Positions 27,372-55,426 are shown, counted from the stretch's first letter. The stretch: DNA of 64,000 nucleotides from Escherichia coli (GCF_044647545.1 NZ_CP172818.1), one strand, 5' to 3'. The notes: generated by a model not told the origin, from the letters alone. Made by a program: numbers and translations.

Positions 27372-27734
27372 GGGGCTGATTCTGGATTCGACGGGATTTG
27401 CGAAACCCAAGGTGCATGCCGAGGGGCGGTTGGCCTCGTAAAAAGCCGCAAAAAATAGTCGCAAACGACGAAAACTACGCTTTAGCAGCTTAATAACCTG
27501 CTTAGAGCCCTCTCTCCCTAGCCTCCGCTCTTAGGACGGGGATCAAGAGAGGTCAAACCCAAAAGAGATCGCGTGGAAGCCCTGCCTGGGGTTGAAGCGT
27601 TAAAACTTAATCAGGCTAGTTTGTTAGTGGCGTGTCCGTCCGCAGCTGGCAAGCGAATGTAAAGACTGACTAAGCATGTAGTACCGAGGACGTAGGAATT
27701 TCGGACGCGGGTTCAACTCCCGCCAGCTCCACCA
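27372..27734 (+). ncRNA. ssrA: tmRNA (transfer-messenger RNA)
   Basis: Begins GGGGCTGATTCTGGATTCGACGGG, contains the tag-reading frame GCAAACGACGAAAACTACGCTTTAGCAGCTTAA (ANDENYALAA-stop), ends GGTTCAACTCCCGCCAGCTCCACCA. Confidence 0.97.
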
Positions 27735-49229: not shown

Positions 49230-49559
49230 ATGAACACTCTACCTGCTACAATTTCGCAGGCGGCGAAGCCCTGCCTGTCGCCAGTGGCTGTCTGGCAAAT
49301 GCTACTGACACGCCTGCTGGAACAACACTATGGCCTGACACTGAACGACACGCCGTTCAGTGATGAAACTGTTATTAAGGAACATATCGATGCTGGTATC
49401 ACTCTGGCCGATGCAGTCAATTTTCTGGTGGAAAAGTACGAACTGGTACGTATCGATCACAGAGGATTTTCGTGGCAACAACAGTCTCCATATATTTCCG
49501 TAGTAGATATTCTGCGAGCAAGGCGCTCTACCGGCTTGCTAAAAACTAATGTGAAATAA
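49230..49559 (+). CDS. ypjF: YpjF, CbtA-family type IV toxin (cytoskeleton-targeting), 109 aa
   Basis: In-frame ATG 49230 within ORF 49167-49559; translation [57 protein letters not shown]... Confidence 0.85.
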
Positions 49560-49740
49560 ACGCTTAAATACAGAGCAGACTGAAGGAAAGCAAAATGCTA
49601 ATCTCATAGACGAAGAGACTCCCGCTGTAACCTCCCCTCCCCCGAAAAAACCTGACATTTTCTTTTAGGACCAACAATGGGACCAAAATGAAAATTGAAC
49701 TGAAGATTACAATCAATTTAACAACAAGTTACACAACCAA

Positions 49741-49764
49741 TTCAACTCCCGCCAGCTCCACCAA
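49741..49764. repeat. attR: 24-bp direct repeat identical to the ssrA 3' end
   Basis: TTCAACTCCCGCCAGCTCCACCAA, exact match to 27712-27735. Confidence 0.9.
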
Positions 49765-49923
49765 TCATGATTGGACGGTGTAAGGACAACACCAATAAAA
49801 ACAGGAAGTTAGCAGTCTCAGCAGGACACCGACCAGACGGTGAGGAGACAAAAAAGGATACGCAAAGGAGCCGCGGCCCCTGGTGATATGAAAGCCCACA
49901 GATGTGGGCTTTTTCGTTGATGG

Positions 49924-52900
49924 TCAGAACGACCAGTTCACACCAGCCACTGCGTTCCACGGGGATTCCACACCGGCACCATGGCTATACCCCACCCCGA
50001 GATGCCCGCTTAACGAACTGCTGAATGAGGCTTTAATACCTGCCTGGTATATTCCACGTCTGCCCGACAAATCATTGACAAAATTACCGTCATTATTCAC
50101 TTTCACCCGGTTATCATCGACAAATTCTTTGCGCACAGCCGCCTTCAGCCACGGCTCAACTTCCATGCCGTTCCCCAGACGCATGTTGTAACTCAGCGTT
50201 GCGCCCAGTTCACGATATATACTGCGGGTATCGACTGATTTCGATTCCATGCCATTGGATAAATGATATTCGGGGTTATCAGCGGTGAACCCCGTTAACG
50301 ATGCATACGGCGTCAGGTTCCAGTTACCATCGGTAAATCGCATCCCGGTTTCAATGTGACCACCCAGCCCGTTGCTGCGATAACTGCCGTTGGCGGCTCC
50401 ACCGCTGCTCATTTTACCGGCTACGTTACTTTCAAAGCGGTTCAGCTTCACGATACCGTCCAGATAGAAACCACTTTCATGTTCCCAGCTGGCATAGCCC
50501 CCCAGAGAATAACTGCCCACACTGCCATGTCCTCCACGATCAAAACCGATATGTGAATGGGAATAACCCATAAAAGCGCCCAGCGTCGCAATCCCCTCAG
50601 GAATATCATTACGGCTATCGATCCCCACCGTCATTCCGGTCAGCGTCTGCTCAAACCCGGCACCCGCATCGGTGGTGACATTATTACGGGTGTTATACGT
50701 CGTCCCCCAGACATTATTGTTGTGTGGACTCGCTTTCATTATGTTCAACCGCTCGCGAATACTGTTTAGCTCAGCATCAAAGACCAACGGTAATGTTGCT
50801 GCCATATTGAGTACGGCTGCCGTAGAAGGCGTGATGCGTTTCTCCGGGACGGGTGTCGGCGTTGGATCGGGAGTCGGGTCTGGTTTCGGATCCGGTTTTG
50901 GGTCTGGTTTTGGATCCGGCTTCGGATTTGGGTTGGGGTCCGGGTTGGGTTTGACATCATTGGTCAGGTTCCAGTTGCTGTTGCCGTCGCTTTTCAGGAC
51001 ATACTCATAGGTCCCAAGATCAACGAAACCGCCGGTATTACCCAGCGTAAACGAAGCATCCCCTCCCCCTGTTTTCACCAGCGTCATCGCGTCGTCAGAC
51101 TGAGGGCTGACGCCGGTATCCTGAACAAAGATTTTAAAATTACCAGTGGCGTTGTTGTTGACGACCAGTTGATCGCCCCGGGAGCCTGCAACGTTGGTAT
51201 GCAGGTAGAAATTACCGCTGCCGGAAAGTTCACTGGTTGTCAGCGTATTGTAGATACCGTTAGTTGTGGCAGGCGCTGCTGTTTGTGCTGATAAATAAAC
51301 ATCACCGTCGTTGAGGAGCAAACTGTTTACTCTATATTCGCAGTTGCTGGTACCTGCACAGGAATTATTGCTGTTAAGCCAGACACTGCCCCGGCTGGCA
51401 GCCGTCAGGTCGGTAAGCGTCGTATCGACGCCATTTCCGATAGTTAATGTCGCGCTATCGGTAATCCGGATCGCCCCTTCGAGTTTAACTGGCGTAACAT
51501 TATCCCGTGGCGTCATTAACGACAGGCTTCCTGTCGCGCCACTGACCGATGCATCCGCCAGCGTACCTGCATAGACGATTGCCGTCCCGCCAGCGACCTG
51601 GAGATCTTCTGCCCGGGCCAGAGCCTGAAACTCATCTTTTGACCGCCCAAGGGTATATTGCCCGCCAGAGTTAACCTTTGTGGCGGAGTCCTGACCCAGG
51701 TTTTGCATTGCACCACCCTTGCCAACCTTGGAGTCACGGGCTTCGGTACCTGCTAATACCAATAAATTACCGCCATTTTCCAGCAACATATTGGTCGCTA
51801 AATTGCCGGCAATGGAAAAGGTACCGTACTGGTGAGTACCGCTGATTTCAATACCGTTAGCCGTGCTCGTATGGAGAGCGGCACCGCTGTTCTGGATGAT
51901 ATCTGTCGCTTTGCCATTATCGTTGACTGTCAGCGTACCGCCTTCATTAATCGTTGTTTTTACTGCCTCACCGTTAGCCGAAACTGTTTGTATTCCGCCG
52001 TCGTTAATCGTTGTCTCATTCGCCACCCCCTCGACGATTTGTTCGCCGCCGGTGAGCGTCGTGCCTGTCGCAGTGGCTTTTGTTTTGACGATCTCCCGCC
52101 CGCCCGCATTGACCTGTGTTTTGGCGGAAGTGGTGTCTGACTCCACGGTTAACACGCCGCCATTTGCCAGCAGGATATTGTTCGCCGCACCCTGCTCGAT
52201 GCTGAACGCGACGCCATCAGCGCGTGTCCCTGTGACCCGCGTCGCTCTGGTGGTTGCAACCAACGCGCCCTGGCTACTTTGCTGTATCCCCGTTGCGCTG
52301 CCTTTCTCCCGCACATCGAGAGTGCCGCCGTCATTAAGCACCGAGTTTTCAGCCAGACCGCCCTCATTAACTACCTGTGAACCGCCATTAATAATGGAAC
52401 CTTCCGCTGTCCCGTTTACCATAATTTGTTGTAGGCCAGAGACGATATCGGTATTGATCGCCTTACCATAATTCTGAACGGTTTGCGTGCCGCCTTTGAT
52501 GTGCGTTTTATCTGTTGACCCACCATCAACAATTTGTTCACCACTTTCGATATTTGCCTCAGTGGCTAAACCATATACCGTTTGCTTGCCACCTTTGATA
52601 TTTGCTTTTTCAGAAGTGGCACTGGCATATATTGTTTGGGTACCCGCACTATTAAGTACAGTACCAACATCTTTTCCATAAACATCCATTTTGCCGTTGG
52701 CATTAATAATCGTGTCAACTGCCCGGGAACCAGTGACGACTGTTAATGAGCCAGCGTTTTCCAGCACTACATTTTTAGCTTCTGAATTCCTGATGTAGAA
52801 AGCATCACCATAACTGTTGGTTCCTTCGATAAGTGTTCCGGAGGTCGTGGAAGCAATTAATGCGCCGCCGGATTGTTGCTCAACATGCTTAGCCTCACCA

Positions 52901-54501
52901 CCGTCCTGAACCTCCAGAACGCCGCCATTATTAAGTCTGGTGCTATCTGTTTTAGCCTCCTTCTGGACAATCAGCTTACCGCCAGCATCAATGGTAGTAT
53001 TTTTCGCCGAGGTTTTAGCCACTACCGTCAGTTCGCCGGTATTTTCCAGCACAACATAATTAGCCTCCCCTCCGATAATAGTGAAGCGAGAGAGCTTGTT
53101 GTATCCTTCGATATCAGTCCCTGCGCCCGTGTTGGCAACTAAAGCACTGCCCGTCTCCTGGTTAACCCCATGTGCAATACCGCCGGTATAGACAATCAGC
53201 GAGCCTCCAGCGCTAATATTGCTGCCAGTTGCCGTACCATCTTTCTCAACAATCTGCCGGCTCCCGGAGGATATATTTGTCGTGTCAGCTTTCCCGCCGC
53301 TCTTGATATTTTGCGTTCCACTGTTGATATTGGTGCCAGTGGCAATACCATGATTATTAATATTCTGTGTACCACCATTGATTATGGTATTGGTCGCGTT
53401 TCCGGCGACATCCATAACCCCGCCATTATCTATTCGGGTCGCATCAGCTTTAGCATTCGTTAAAACTGACATTGTTCCTTTATCTTTAATTATCGTCCTG
53501 GTTGCCGAACCATATACGTCTAAATGACCACCATTTTCCAGCAACACATTGTCTGCCACGTTATTGTGGATGGAGAATGCCCCTTCACTATTCGTACCGC
53601 TCACCGTCAAATCGTAAGTCGTTACTTTTAAAGCGGCTCCATCGTGCTGAGTAACATTTGTTGCCATACCACCTCTAACATCAAGCACGCCACCGGAATA
53701 AATTTCAATAACATCCGAGGTGCTGGTGTAATCAACAATTTGCGTACCACCAGAATAGATCTGCGTATTTTTTGCCGTTGAATTACTATTCAGAGACTGA
53801 GTTCCGCCTTCAATCGTAGTGTCCAGCGCACGGCTCTCATATACTCTTTGCTCACCGCCATTTTTGATGGTGGTTGTTTCTACTGTGCTCTGTTCAACAT
53901 ACTGTCGACCACCATTTATGGTTGTGTTCGTTGCCAGACTTCCTTGTACTACGTCCTGAGAGCCAGACTTATTTATCGTTGTACTGTCGACATGCCCCTG
54001 AGTTGTTACTCGTTGGCTGCCACCATCAATGATTGTTCCATTCGCAGTCCCCCCACTTATGTGTGAATTACCCCCCTTAATTGTCGTTCCATTGCTGATA
54101 CCACCTGTATAAACGTCCTGATTGCCACTCTCGATTATTGTACCTGTGGAAATACCCCCGTCATGAATTGTCTGTCTGCCCCCGTTAATGGTTGTATTAT
54201 TAGCCTGCCCCACATAATTGTTATGACGTCCTATATCTTGATATCCACCAGATTCAATAAGACTTTCATTAGATATCCCACCATAAACATTCTGCTGGCC
54301 ATGGTTGATAATATGAGTGTTATTTGTTGTACCTCGTTCATCTACTTTTTGGCTGCCATCTACAGTCTCATCGTTTACCACACCAATAACATCAGGAGTG
54401 AAGGCCGCCATCCCGGGCGGGGCATATATCAAGGCAGATATCAATAAGGAAAGTACTGAGCGGCGACAATAATGGAGATTGGTCCTGTTCATAAATTTCA
54501 T
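49924..54501 (-). CDS. ypjA: YpjA, AIDA/adhesin-like autotransporter (about 1520 aa; start ambiguous among 54492, 54501, 54621)
   Basis: ORF 49924-54621; extended signal peptide, long repetitive beta-helix-like passenger (GG/NxT-rich repeats), Pro-rich PDPK linker, C-terminal beta-barrel ending in an aromatic residue (WSF). Confidence 0.9.
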   Translation of the reverse strand: MKFMNRTNLHYCRRSVLSLLISALIYAPPGMAAFTPDVIGVVNDETVDGSQKVDERGTTNNTHIINHGQQNVYGGISNESLIESGGYQDIGRHNNYVGQANNTTINGGRQTIHDGGISTGTIIESGNQDVYTGGISNGTTIKGGNSHISGGTANGTIIDGGSQRVTTQGHVDSTTINKSGSQDVVQGSLATNTTINGGRQYVEQSTVETTTIKNGGEQRVYESRALDTTIEGGTQSLNSNSTAKNTQIYSGGTQIVDYTSTSDVIEIYSGGVLDVRGGMATNVTQHDGAALKVTTYDLTVSGTNSEGAFSIHNNVADNVLLENGGHLDVYGSATRTIIKDKGTMSVLTNAKADATRIDNGGVMDVAGNATNTIINGGTQNINNHGIATGTNINSGTQNIKSGGKADTTNISSGSRQIVEKDGTATGSNISAGGSLIVYTGGIAHGVNQETGSALVANTGAGTDIEGYNKLSRFTIIGGEANYVVLENTGELTVVAKTSAKNTTIDAGGKLIVQKEAKTDSTRLNNGGVLEVQDGGEAKHVEQQSGGALIASTTSGTLIEGTNSYGDAFYIRNSEAKNVVLENAGSLTVVTGSRAVDTIINANGKMDVYGKDVGTVLNSAGTQTIYASATSEKANIKGGKQTVYGLATEANIESGEQIVDGGSTDKTHIKGGTQTVQNYGKAINTDIVSGLQQIMVNGTAEGSIINGGSQVVNEGGLAENSVLNDGGTLDVREKGSATGIQQSSQGALVATTRATRVTGTRADGVAFSIEQGAANNILLANGGVLTVESDTTSAKTQVNAGGREIVKTKATATGTTLTGGEQIVEGVANETTINDGGIQTVSANGEAVKTTINEGGTLTVNDNGKATDIIQNSGAALHTSTANGIEISGTHQYGTFSIAGNLATNMLLENGGNLLVLAGTEARDSKVGKGGAMQNLGQDSATKVNSGGQYTLGRSKDEFQALARAEDLQVAGGTAIVYAGTLADASVSGATGSLSLMTPRDNVTPVKLEGAIRITDSATLTIGNGVDTTLTDLTAASRGSVWLNSNNSCAGTSNCEYRVNSLLLNDGDVYLSAQTAAPATTNGIYNTLTTSELSGSGNFYLHTNVAGSRGDQLVVNNNATGNFKIFVQDTGVSPQSDDAMTLVKTGGGDASFTLGNTGGFVDLGTYEYVLKSDGNSNWNLTNDVKPNPDPNPNPKPDPKPDPKPDPKPDPTPDPTPTPVPEKRITPSTAAVLNMAATLPLVFDAELNSIRERLNIMKASPHNNNVWGTTYNTRNNVTTDAGAGFEQTLTGMTVGIDSRNDIPEGIATLGAFMGYSHSHIGFDRGGHGSVGSYSLGGYASWEHESGFYLDGIVKLNRFESNVAGKMSSGGAANGSYRSNGLGGHIETGMRFTDGNWNLTPYASLTGFTADNPEYHLSNGMESKSVDTRSIYRELGATLSYNMRLGNGMEVEPWLKAAVRKEFVDDNRVKVNNDGNFVNDLSGRRGIYQAGIKASFSSSLSGHLGVGYSHGAGVESPWNAVAGVNWSF

Positions 54502-54830
54502 CCTCTGAAAAGTGAATACTGAGTAGCGTTTAAGCGACCTTAGCTTTGCTGCAACATCAGCCCACAGGCACCAGACCAGGGGATTCATCCTGAAGAGACA
54601 GCGCAAGTGTATTGTGTTCACCGCTCATCAAAGACATCATGATGAAATGATGATATTCCGCATAAGAATGAGGCATTTTTTAAACGCAGTGCGCTGAAGT
54701 GTGGTTGGATAAAAAAGTCAATCTATTCAGGAAACACGGACGTATTCTTTTCTTTCGACAATCAGGCAGTCGGCAAAATAAAATGATTTACATAATCGTT
54801 TCTGATGAATATCTTCTGCTCACATAAAAA

Positions 54831-55097
54831 TCACACAATAACTCTGAGATCGCAGATTGTTTTACTTTTACAGCTTCCGTCCCCCCATTGTTGGGCAAAT
54901 ATAGATTGGGCCAGAGCACGAAAGTTAATACCACGTTTGCACAGCTCCTCCAACAGCACGACAAGATGCCACATACTGCGCCCCAGTCGGTTCAGTTTAC
55001 AGACTAGCAGTGCGTCCCCTACCGATAATGTCCTGAGCCGTTTGTTCTGTCCGGGCCTGCTGCCACGGTTATGCGCTGCAGTGGTAACTCTAAGCAC
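54831..55097 (-). pseudogene. pinH: Serine invertase (Pin/Hin family) fragment
   Basis: 88-aa ORF with ...GDALLVCKLNRLGRSMWHLVVLLEELCKRGINFRAL..., resembling the middle of Pin-type recombinases; lacks the N-terminal catalytic Ser region and the C-terminal HTH. Confidence 0.7.
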
Positions 55098-55426
55098 GCA
55101 GTTATTCAGTCAGGCGTGGTGCACCGTAACGCTGGTATTGCTGGGTAAGATCAAAAAACTTTCAAGCAGCTAAGGAAAGTTGAACCAGACATTAGATGAA
55201 ATATTTCAACCAATTACAGCACCAGTTCAGACACCGCCAACTCATCAAATAAATCAAGGGGTTACGTGAAAGCGCAGCCCCTTTTACTTTGGTAGTGGCA
55301 GCAAAAGGGTTGTAGTGTAAAGGATAATTCCGTTTAATCAGCCAACAATATATATTATTTCAATCTACGTTATTATCTCTTTTAAAAATAGCCATTTATT
55401 TATCATTGAAAACTGCTTTTAGAACT

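Follow-up and report, generated by a model that had tools for sequence, protein, structure and literature searches.

The chromosomal ypjA (ehaD) autotransporter adhesin gene of Escherichia coli beside the CP4-57 attR junction: start codon, domain architecture and a proline-rich linker of varying length

TibA, the self-associating autotransporter of ETEC, is built, in order, of AIDA-type repeats, a junction, a separate proline-rich domain and a membrane-embedded domain (PMC3835316). The P.69 pertactin of Bordetella carries two regions of proline-containing repeats, R1 with (GGXXP)n and R2 with (PQP)n, and the copy number of these varies between strains (PMC3279416). YpjA is counted among the SAATs and has been connected with biofilm formation (PMC9289746; PMC3796261), YpjA/EhaD being associated with adhesion as well (PMC3796261, PMC4076661, PMC9289746). 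An autochaperone has been reported for EhaD (PMC5767081), and SignalP 6.0 assigns to K-12 YpjA a 29-aa signal peptide (PMC13101318), the same length as in the form described here.

The gene that concerns us lies in a 64,000-nucleotide stretch of E. coli DNA (NZ_CP172818.1), referred to below as the window. It is an intact chromosomal ypjA (ehaD in EHEC), encoding an already known type Va, AIDA-I/SAAT-like autotransporter adhesin. The initial annotation had called it autotransporter ypjA, and that identity is secured by 100% identity, with the same start and stop, to the annotated "adhesin-like autotransporter YpjA/EhaD" of FDAARGOS_497 (RefSeq) and by synteny, the full-length, highly similar gene keeping its position downstream of ssrA. 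The open frame extends over 49924..54621 on the minus strand and encodes 1522 aa when read from ATG 54492 and 1525 aa when read from ATG 54501, in agreement with the ~1520 aa proposed earlier. K-12 ypjA is 95.6% identical to it in DNA sequence. The features of the locus, in window coordinates, are these:

27712..27734, plus strand: attL core, the 3' end of ssrA (tmRNA gene 27372-27734, ARAGORN)
49741..49763, plus strand: attR core of CP4-57, an exact second copy of the 23 nt at the ssrA 3' end
49890..49913, strand not assigned: GC-rich hairpin between attR and the ypjA stop, with a U-run on the plus strand only; likely terminator
49924..54492, minus strand: ypjA/EhaD CDS, 1522 aa, TGA stop at 49924-49926 (open frame, identical PGAP-annotated gene, Pfam)
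49927..50715, minus strand: 12-stranded beta-barrel translocator (PF03797, E=7.9e-46)
50737..50829, minus strand: alpha-helix predicted to plug the barrel, residues 1222-1252 (AlphaFold helix 208-238 of the 508-aa C-terminal fragment)
50851..50949, minus strand: alternating Pro-X linker, residues 1182-1214, followed by VPEK (translation, AlphaFold, indels)
50864..50927, strand not assigned: imperfect 12/24-bp tandem repeat array in the linker coding region (TRF with shuffle control)
50962..51330, minus strand: pertactin-like junction/autochaperone, residues 1055-1177 (PF03212, E=5.2e-45)
51331..54405, minus strand: passenger, a predicted beta-helix of AIDA-type repeats (PF16168, E=1.6e-139, 10 stretches)
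54406..54492, minus strand: putative 29-aa Sec signal peptide, MNRTNLHYCRRSVLSLLISALIYAPPGMA followed by A, with basic n-region and hydrophobic core
54493..54621, minus strand: in-frame upstream extension (GTG 54621, ATG 54588, ATG 54501), judged to be non-coding leader
54501..54505, minus strand: Shine-Dalgarno GAGGA, 8-nt spacer to ATG 54492, its last A being the A of ATG 54501

The domains are those of a type Va autotransporter. By heuristic inspection the N-terminus has a basic n-region, a single hydrophobic core and a GMA/A junction; hydrophobic 11-mers occur only at residues 54-59 of the long open frame, which are residues 11-16 counted from ATG 54492, and the N-termini of YejO paralogues have the same length as the 29-aa form. 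The passenger had been described as long and repetitive, and so it is: besides its 10 Pfam AIDA-repeat stretches it contains five modules of ~65-80 aa (residues 282-357, 444-523, 539-604, 738-816 and 867-943). These are recovered only when searching with one module; self-BLASTP of the whole protein gives no off-diagonal HSPs at 1e-5. In the PDB, the passenger matches Ag43, TibA (4q1q, E=8.7e-27) and an adhesin of the AIDA-I family in sequence, placing the protein, together with PF16168 and PF03212, with the AIDA-I/SAAT-like adhesins, whose passengers consist of ~19-aa AIDA repeats, and residues 419-534 of P.69 pertactin (1dab) match the junction/autochaperone domain. An AlphaFold model of the last 508 aa (mean pLDDT 83) shows a beta-rich junction, 33 disordered residues, a 31-residue helix directly before the first barrel strand, and a barrel with ~12 long strands at high pLDDT. 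The pLDDT falls below 50 at fragment residues 169-201, which are residues 1183-1215 of the full-length protein and coincide with the linker. The barrel covers 1-254 of the 255 positions of the PF03797 profile and matches BrkA (3qq2) and Vag8 (7akv) in the PDB. A Trypan_PARP Pfam match on the linker (31 bits against a 100-bit cut-off) is compositional and was set aside. Protein searches with the C-terminal 508 aa return mostly fragments and paralogues (YejO, YcgV-type) instead of full-length YpjA clusters, and were used only for linker diversity, N-termini and structure alignment.

ATG 54492 is the most likely start, because it is the sole candidate with a well-spaced Shine-Dalgarno sequence, provides a 29-aa signal peptide and is PGAP's choice. 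Its GAGGA (54505-54501, 8-nt spacer), already singled out in the initial annotation as the only one suitably placed, forms a duplex of -5.8 kcal/mol with the 16S 3' end at gap 8. Two of the three in-frame Met codons listed there, 54501 and 54492, are indeed Met codons, but 54621 is GTG, and a fourth in-frame ATG, at 54588, was absent from the list. Translation from ATG 54501 (MKFMNRTN..., 32-aa signal peptide, 1525 aa) is improbable: this in-frame codon is shared by all alleles and by both paralogue loci, and the extra Lys that it supplies is compatible with a signal-peptide n-region, but the GAGG overlaps it and leaves no spacer, a poor arrangement for initiation, PGAP chooses 54492 instead in all annotated genomes seen, and the YejO paralogues match the 29-aa form in length. 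That GTG 54621 or ATG 54588 initiates a protein with a long extended signal peptide is barely credible. No stop interrupts the 43 codons upstream in any ypjA allele, and extended signal peptides do occur in this family (Ag43, 52 aa; PMC13101318); nevertheless, anti-SD duplex scoring finds no Shine-Dalgarno sequence for either codon, and the longest N-terminus matches no Pfam domain, ESPR (PF13018) included even at E<=10, and so does not resemble that of the ESPR autotransporters. Moreover, it is only the invariance of the leader DNA that keeps the upstream frame open: in the homologous leader of paralogue L008 a 7-bp frame-breaking indel introduces an in-frame stop with the gene still intact, which we count as support for 54492, and the leader differs from that of paralogue L004 by 4 nonsynonymous and 3 synonymous substitutions. 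Since the ypjA leader has no variable positions among the alleles examined, conservation is uninformative on the choice of start and cannot separate ATG 54501 from 54492; only paralogue L008 helped. The conservation of the leader was at one point considered unusual, an idea dropped when other 150-bp stretches within the gene proved equally invariant. An Rfam scan of 49500-55400 (E<=1) places no known RNA element in it; its only hit, RF01079 within the coding sequence, is sub-threshold (22.7 bits, with a gathering score of 50 bits) and due to chance. The RefSeq start codon of ypjA is confirmed as the most likely one.

At the other end of the gene, the window contains just two copies of TTCAACTCCCGCCAGCTCCACCA, at 27712-27734 and 49741-49763, where none would be expected by chance, and this exact 23-bp repeat of the ssrA 3' end bounds a CP4-57-like island. 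Over 23 kb, the DNA enclosed by the two copies shares 98.8% identity with K-12 CP4-57, and a K-12-like record annotates intA through ypjF in such an island. From attR to the ypjA stop codon is exactly 160 bp (about 160 had been the initial estimate). In island-free genomes it is ssrA itself that lies 160 bp from ypjA, with the alignment beginning exactly at the attR base; CP4-57 therefore inserted into ssrA, and ypjA is its ancestral neighbour. Thus the island does adjoin ypjA, as had been noted, but its target was the tmRNA gene rather than the adhesin locus itself. The ssrA/CP4-57 attR junction is located exactly where expected.

The linker peptide quoted in the initial annotation, PNPDPNPNPKPDPKPDPKPDPKPDPTPDPTPTP, is present exactly and is encoded at 50851-50949. 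The tandem repeats ascribed to it are also real, although the interval given for them, 50865-50960, was ~10 bp off. TRF reports a period of 12 with 4.5 copies at 50874-50927 (78% matches, score 59) and a period of 24 with 2.3 copies at 50864-50919 (score 77); a score of 59 is reached by one in 200 codon-shuffled versions of the gene. Among five alleles, three of the four indel blocks fall in the linker, that is, in 99 of 4569 bp; all are multiples of 6 and in frame, and those in the linker are perfect duplications of CCCAACCCAAAT or CCAGAC. The Pro-X linker can accordingly be documented as the indel hot spot of ypjA. It had been predicted to be a site of in-frame length variation, to be checked by comparing repeat number across strains, and that comparison bears the prediction out: in other genomes, the stretch covered by a 341-bp linker probe measures 341, 347 or 353 bp (0, +6 or +12 bp), so that length changes in 6- and 12-bp units inside the linker. 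These lengths were found in ~19, 31 and 8 of 60 evenly sampled genomes and in 17, 30 and 10 of a second 60; the classes are thus estimated from 2 x 60 sampled rows rather than from a full census. In the sampled genomes the length is 353 bp in every O157:H7-type allele, 341 bp in every window-type allele and 347 bp wherever identity to the K-12 allele is >=99.7%. The length classes track allele lineages; this is a slow slippage polymorphism. One K-12-type allele differs from K-12 solely by a perfect 6-bp duplication, and the single clearly recent indel (L007) sits in a ypjA pseudogene. No out-of-frame length was seen in the 2 x 60 sampled genomes, all differences being multiples of 6 bp. The notion of the linker as an on/off switch was rejected on the grounds of these in-frame lengths and lineage-tracking classes, and with lengths constant within identity classes the locus does not behave as a phase-variable one in these samples.

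A promoter scan upstream of the start found no sigma-70-like promoter on the ypjA strand, and the counts of both scans (promoters, 10 against 8.1 +/- 2.9 in shuffles; terminators, 10 against 5.3 +/- 2.5) are within, or not far above, the shuffle range. The hairpin at 49890..49913 was missed by the T-run rule of the scan and was folded separately (-20.8 kcal/mol, z=-2.7 on the plus strand; -15.9, z=-1.7 on the minus strand).

It is possible, though we doubt it, that ypjA is silent here and effectively cryptic, its polymorphism, linker included, being neutral drift. K-12 ypjA is reportedly poorly expressed under laboratory conditions, which we count in favour of such a state, as we do the failure of the upstream scan to find a clear promoter on the gene's strand; and ypjA has a coverage of >=80% in 2430 of 5426 complete genomes, being otherwise, in more than half, absent, truncated or IS-disrupted. 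Yet a 4.6-kb open frame has been kept intact across diverged alleles, with indels only in frame, and the literature ties ypjA, when expressed, to biofilm formation. Distinctly less likely is a fast contingency locus, changing frequently within clones and selected for adhesin projection or antibody escape. The strong concentration of indels in the linker would suit it, as would the K-12-type allele one perfect 6-bp duplication away from K-12; so would the (PN)n runs of the ycgV-locus paralogue, whose WNLT...RITPS segment has 66 aa in one strain and 102 in another and whose linker probe span differs between two ETEC strains, and pertactin, with its (PQP)n and (GGXXP)n regions, offers a precedent (PMC3279416). 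Against this, two samples of 60 genomes each show no length difference inside any identity class, the 95-99% identity band, in which alleles with a single indel would be expected, holds only 33 of ~1315 K-12-type carriers, the repeats match imperfectly (78%) and are short, and no sampled genome has an out-of-frame length. We consider it comparably unlikely that the linker is a length-tunable stalk under selection, with slippage serving as adaptive tuning rather than producing neutral noise. Were that so, the +0/+2/+4 aa of ypjA and the longer, variable (PN)n of the ycgV-locus paralogue might adjust reach through LPS O-antigen or capsule, and linker lengths matched to polysaccharide thickness would make a small example of repeat-mediated tuning of adhesin reach; alternatively, the linker might be a site of antigenic variation.

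The reading that we prefer, and hold with considerable confidence as a whole, is of a ypjA adhesin starting at 54492, with a Pro-X linker that has slippage alleles and with CP4-57 beside it. Translation would most likely begin at ATG 54492, and the 29-aa Sec signal peptide would direct its export through the inner membrane. The C-terminal barrel of 12 strands would insert in the outer membrane with the alpha-helix in its pore, displaying on the cell surface a passenger of ~1150 aa, presumably beta-helical, with its pertactin-like autochaperone cap; YpjA, when expressed, would contribute to adhesion and biofilm formation. Between autochaperone and pore helix, the 33-aa Pro-X segment may form an extended, non-globular stalk of ~10 nm, and its composition and low model confidence suggest that most likely it holds the passenger off the barrel mouth. 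With short, imperfect repeats of 6/12 bp as its coding sequence, the linker would occasionally gain or lose Pro-X dipeptides in frame, by slippage during replication or by unequal exchange; the result would be length alleles specific to lineages (0 in the window type, +2 aa in the K-12 type and +4 aa in the O157 type). Integration of CP4-57 into the 3' end of ssrA duplicated 23 bp and left attR abutting ypjA. The linker could serve as an in-frame length marker for typing ypjA alleles, and possibly as a site at which to insert or vary spacers in YpjA-based surface display; beyond annotation hygiene, these findings matter little.

Set beside its relatives, the window gene is an allelic variant. 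K-12 YpjA (b2647) and EhaD of EHEC O157:H7 have the same locus order (ssrA, ypjA, recombinase remnant, ypjCB) and the same domain order; the window protein has 1522 aa against 1526 in K-12 and 1528 in O157, its linker being shorter than theirs by 2 and 4 aa, respectively, and its passenger having a 2-aa deletion near 53520 relative to both. The paralogue at the ycgV locus (beside minCDE/ymgJ, and also named ypjA/EhaD by PGAP) shares leader, signal peptide, junction, barrel and linker position, with a linker that ends in PDPTPEPTPTPVPEK; it differs in its shorter passenger (1120-1156 aa in total) and in a long (PN)n run, in a segment of 66-102 aa, that is far more variable in length than the linker of ypjA. 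TibA has its domain order (repeats, junction, proline-rich, barrel) in common with YpjA, but is smaller (989 aa), has a proline-rich domain of ~50 aa and is glycosylated by TibC, whereas the genomes examined show no glycosyltransferase gene next to ypjA. Pertactin, whose C-terminal passenger domain is homologous to YpjA residues 1059-1178, likewise has short proline-containing repeats that vary between strains; these are immunodominant and belong to the folded passenger, either inside it or at its end, unlike the YpjA repeat, which is a Pro-X dipeptide linker between autochaperone and pore helix. The Glu-Pro/Lys-Pro spacer of TonB is also an alternating X-Pro run, thought to be extended and rod-like; TonB is an unrelated periplasmic protein, and the likeness to the YpjA linker would be one of possible working, not of family. 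In linker and in architecture, then, ypjA fits the precedents of TibA and pertactin and is ordinary.

A single long open reading frame runs on the minus strand over 49924..54621, and Pfam places in it ten AIDA-repeat stretches (E=1.6e-139), a Pertactin domain and a C-terminal Autotransporter beta-domain (E=7.9e-46). When window positions 49700-54800 are set against 5,426 complete E. coli genomes by megablast, at least 80% of the query is found in 2430 of them. The match in FDAARGOS_497 has 100% identity and is named there by RefSeq as "ypjA: adhesin-like autotransporter YpjA/EhaD"; K-12-type genomes match at 95.6%, and the two O157:H7 genomes among the matches listed at 92.6-95.9%. As in K-12, the gene is preceded by an annotated 39-aa ORF, a recombinase remnant and ypjCB, and followed by the CP4-57 genes yfjZ/ypjF. 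As judged from sequence, these identities and K-12-like neighbours settle the identity of the gene at this locus as ypjA. Many of the complete E. coli genomes have ypjA absent, truncated or IS-disrupted. Further upstream, an 88-aa ORF (54831-55097, minus strand) overlaps an internal fragment of a pinH-like recombinase-family pseudogene, as RefSeq annotates it elsewhere. At 57622-57697 (minus strand) ARAGORN predicts a tRNA-Met (anticodon CAT), a place whose K-12 equivalent we take to be that of an ileY-type tRNA-Ile2.

The downstream side of ypjA is the right-hand end of CP4-57, for which four landmarks matter.

27372-27734, ssrA, the tmRNA gene (ARAGORN)
49741-49763, attR, the sole recurrence of the last 23 nt of ssrA
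49890-49913, GC-rich hairpin between attR and the ypjA stop codon
49924-49926, stop codon of ypjA (minus strand)

The repeated 23 nt are TTCAACTCCCGCCAGCTCCACCA, for which the chance expectation is no recurrence. The distance from attR to ypjA, put at ~160 bp on first reading, is exactly 160 bp (49763 to 49924). The 3' end of ssrA is known as a hot spot of integration, and the 22 kb enclosed by the repeats form one continuous alignment with K-12 CP4-57 at 98.8% identity. In island-free genomes (loci L001 and L005) the alignment to the window begins exactly at base 49741 and it is ssrA itself that lies 160 bp from ypjA; O157-type genomes carry another island at the same ssrA site. By this comparison CP4-57 is integrated into the ssrA 3' end and ypjA is its ancestral right-hand neighbour. 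The initial annotation had the island inserted next to an adhesin locus: the adjacency stands, but the insertion target is the ssrA 3' end, as the ssrA-ypjA junction of island-free genomes shows. The hairpin folds at -20.8 kcal/mol on the plus strand, the only strand on which it has a U-run, and is presumably a terminator. The adhesin gene is more diverged from K-12 than the mobile element beside it (only 95.6% identity for ypjA, 49924-54492, versus 98.8% for the CP4-57 island, window 27001-49998).

Where translation of ypjA starts has several candidate answers. The ATG codons at 54501 and 54492 had been correctly placed, as had the GAGGA at 54505-54501 with its 8-nt spacer to 54492; the supposed Met at 54621 is a GTG, with no ATG there, and a further in-frame ATG lies at 54588. 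Pairing with the 16S rRNA 3' end is worth -5.8 kcal/mol, at the 8-nt gap, for ATG 54492 and only -1.9 kcal/mol for GTG 54621 and ATG 54588. Within the first 90 residues of the longest ORF, only SVLSLLISALIYA is strongly hydrophobic. Counted from ATG 54492, the signal peptide is MNRTNLHYCRRSVLSLLISALIYAPPGMA, of 29 residues, the length that SignalP 6.0 assigns to K-12 YpjA (PMC13101318); the N-terminus of YejO, a paralogue, is of matching length. All annotated genomes examined have the PGAP start at the equivalent of 54492. A Pfam scan of the longest possible N-terminus found neither an ESPR nor any other domain. Conservation among ypjA alleles does not separate the candidates, because the 150 bp upstream are invariant. 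What does bear on the far-upstream ones is a paralogous gene at the ycgV locus, which adjoins minCDE/ymgJ and is represented by two loci of other genomes.

L004, 3685-7155, ycgV-locus paralogue
L008, 2185-5547, ycgV-locus paralogue

In the homologous leader of L008, whose gene is intact, the upstream extension is interrupted by a stop codon owing to a 7-bp indel, and GTG 54621 and ATG 54588 are rejected on that account. Translation from ATG 54501 is a minor possibility, with the GAGG at zero spacing from it. The evidence of pairing and spacing, signal peptide and PGAP usage favours ATG 54492, the start originally preferred.

The leader DNA at 54523-54672 shows no variation among five ypjA alleles, a degree of constancy that other windows of the gene match. 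At 54557-54676 (minus strand), in another frame than the ypjA extension, RefSeq has a hypothetical protein of 39 aa, WP_001120794.1. It is unlikely to be a conserved protein, since all five codons that differ from the ycgV-locus paralogues are nonsynonymous and none is synonymous.

The linker, an alternating Pro-X segment of 33 residues, is encoded by 50851-50949, and its peptide had been quoted exactly. TRF finds two periodicities, 4.5 copies of 12 bp at 50874-50927 (78% matches) and 2.3 copies of 24 bp at 50864-50919; the lower score was attained by one of 200 codon-shuffled genes. In-frame length variation had been proposed here, and linker length does differ among strains. When a 341-bp probe with the linker at its centre is aligned to other genomes, it covers 341, 347 or 353 bp in about 19, 31 and 8, respectively, of 60 evenly spaced rows; a second sample, with the K-12 allele as query, gives 17, 30 and 10 of 60. 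Across about 5 kb, five aligned full alleles differ by only four indel blocks. Three of these (12, 6 and 6 bp) fall inside the linker; by our own arithmetic at least three of four indels would land within 99 of 4569 bp with a chance of about 4e-5. The fourth is a 6-bp block (2 aa) of the passenger near 53520 (minus strand), absent from the window allele and present in all four others compared. In the O157/KV7 allele CCCAACCCAAAT is perfectly duplicated, the NCCP14541 allele is without AACCAG, and the O9:H10 strain Res13-Lact-PEB20-37-A (L007) has a K-12-type allele whose sole difference from K-12 across the 347-bp probe is a perfect CCAGAC duplication. These gains and losses have the form of typical slippage products. 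(The L007 ypjA is annotated as a pseudogene with its N-terminus missing.) All sampled O157:H7-type genomes have 353 bp, all rows at least 99.7% identical to the K-12 allele 347 bp, and all window-type rows 341 bp. Two observations speak against a switch-like, phase-variable linker: every length difference seen is a multiple of 6 bp, and length is constant inside each identity class in both samples. The variation appears instead slow and clonal, an in-frame polymorphism at the level of lineages.

The last 508 residues as modelled by AlphaFold (25-sequence alignment, mean pLDDT 83.4) comprise, in order, a beta-rich junction, a low-pLDDT stretch, a helix and a barrel. The pLDDT is below 50 at fragment residues 169-201 (1183-1215 of the full length), coincident with the linker; the predicted helix has 31 residues (1222-1252) and the barrel about 12 long strands. 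PDB sequence matches fit this layout, with pertactin and IgA1 protease at the junction, BrkA and Vag8 at the helix and barrel. In type Va secretion the helix sits in the barrel lumen, so that the linker would exit at the barrel's outer mouth. The alternating Pro-X run would be expected to be extended, and its 33-37 residues, at about 0.3 nm each, would then reach roughly 10-11 nm.

Reviews credit YpjA/EhaD, when expressed, with adhesion and biofilm formation, group it with Ag43, AIDA-I and TibA, and report an unknown mechanism and no structure (PMC9289746, PMC3796261, PMC4076661, PMC12547504). The window contains nothing that contradicts this role. Inside ypjA lies an antisense ORF of 85 aa (52885-53142, plus strand), 'CDS87 / AS-ypjA', one of 17 putative new K-12 CDSs of a PIRT-Seq study (PMC12350097 supplement). 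The window's version differs from AS-ypjA by three amino acids and falls where the gene varies least (0-3 variable columns per 150 bp, 53178-52729).

On the whole, the initial observation is confirmed and its interpretation supported, with small corrections; the gene, the island junction and the kind of repeat polymorphism are all already known. TibA likewise has its proline-rich domain between the junction and the membrane domain (PMC3835316). Homologues at greater distance either have no Pro-X run or have one of up to 36 aa, and its composition varies. Autotransporter repeats that differ in copy number are classically known from pertactin, whose (GGXXP)n and (PQP)n regions set the precedent (PMC3279416). 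The ycgV-locus paralogue, which PGAP likewise names ypjA/EhaD, is shorter than ypjA. Its linker, a pure (PN)n, is much more variable than that of ypjA: two strains have linker segments of 102 and 66 aa, and the probe covers 497 bp in ETEC4075 as against 467 bp in ETEC4071.
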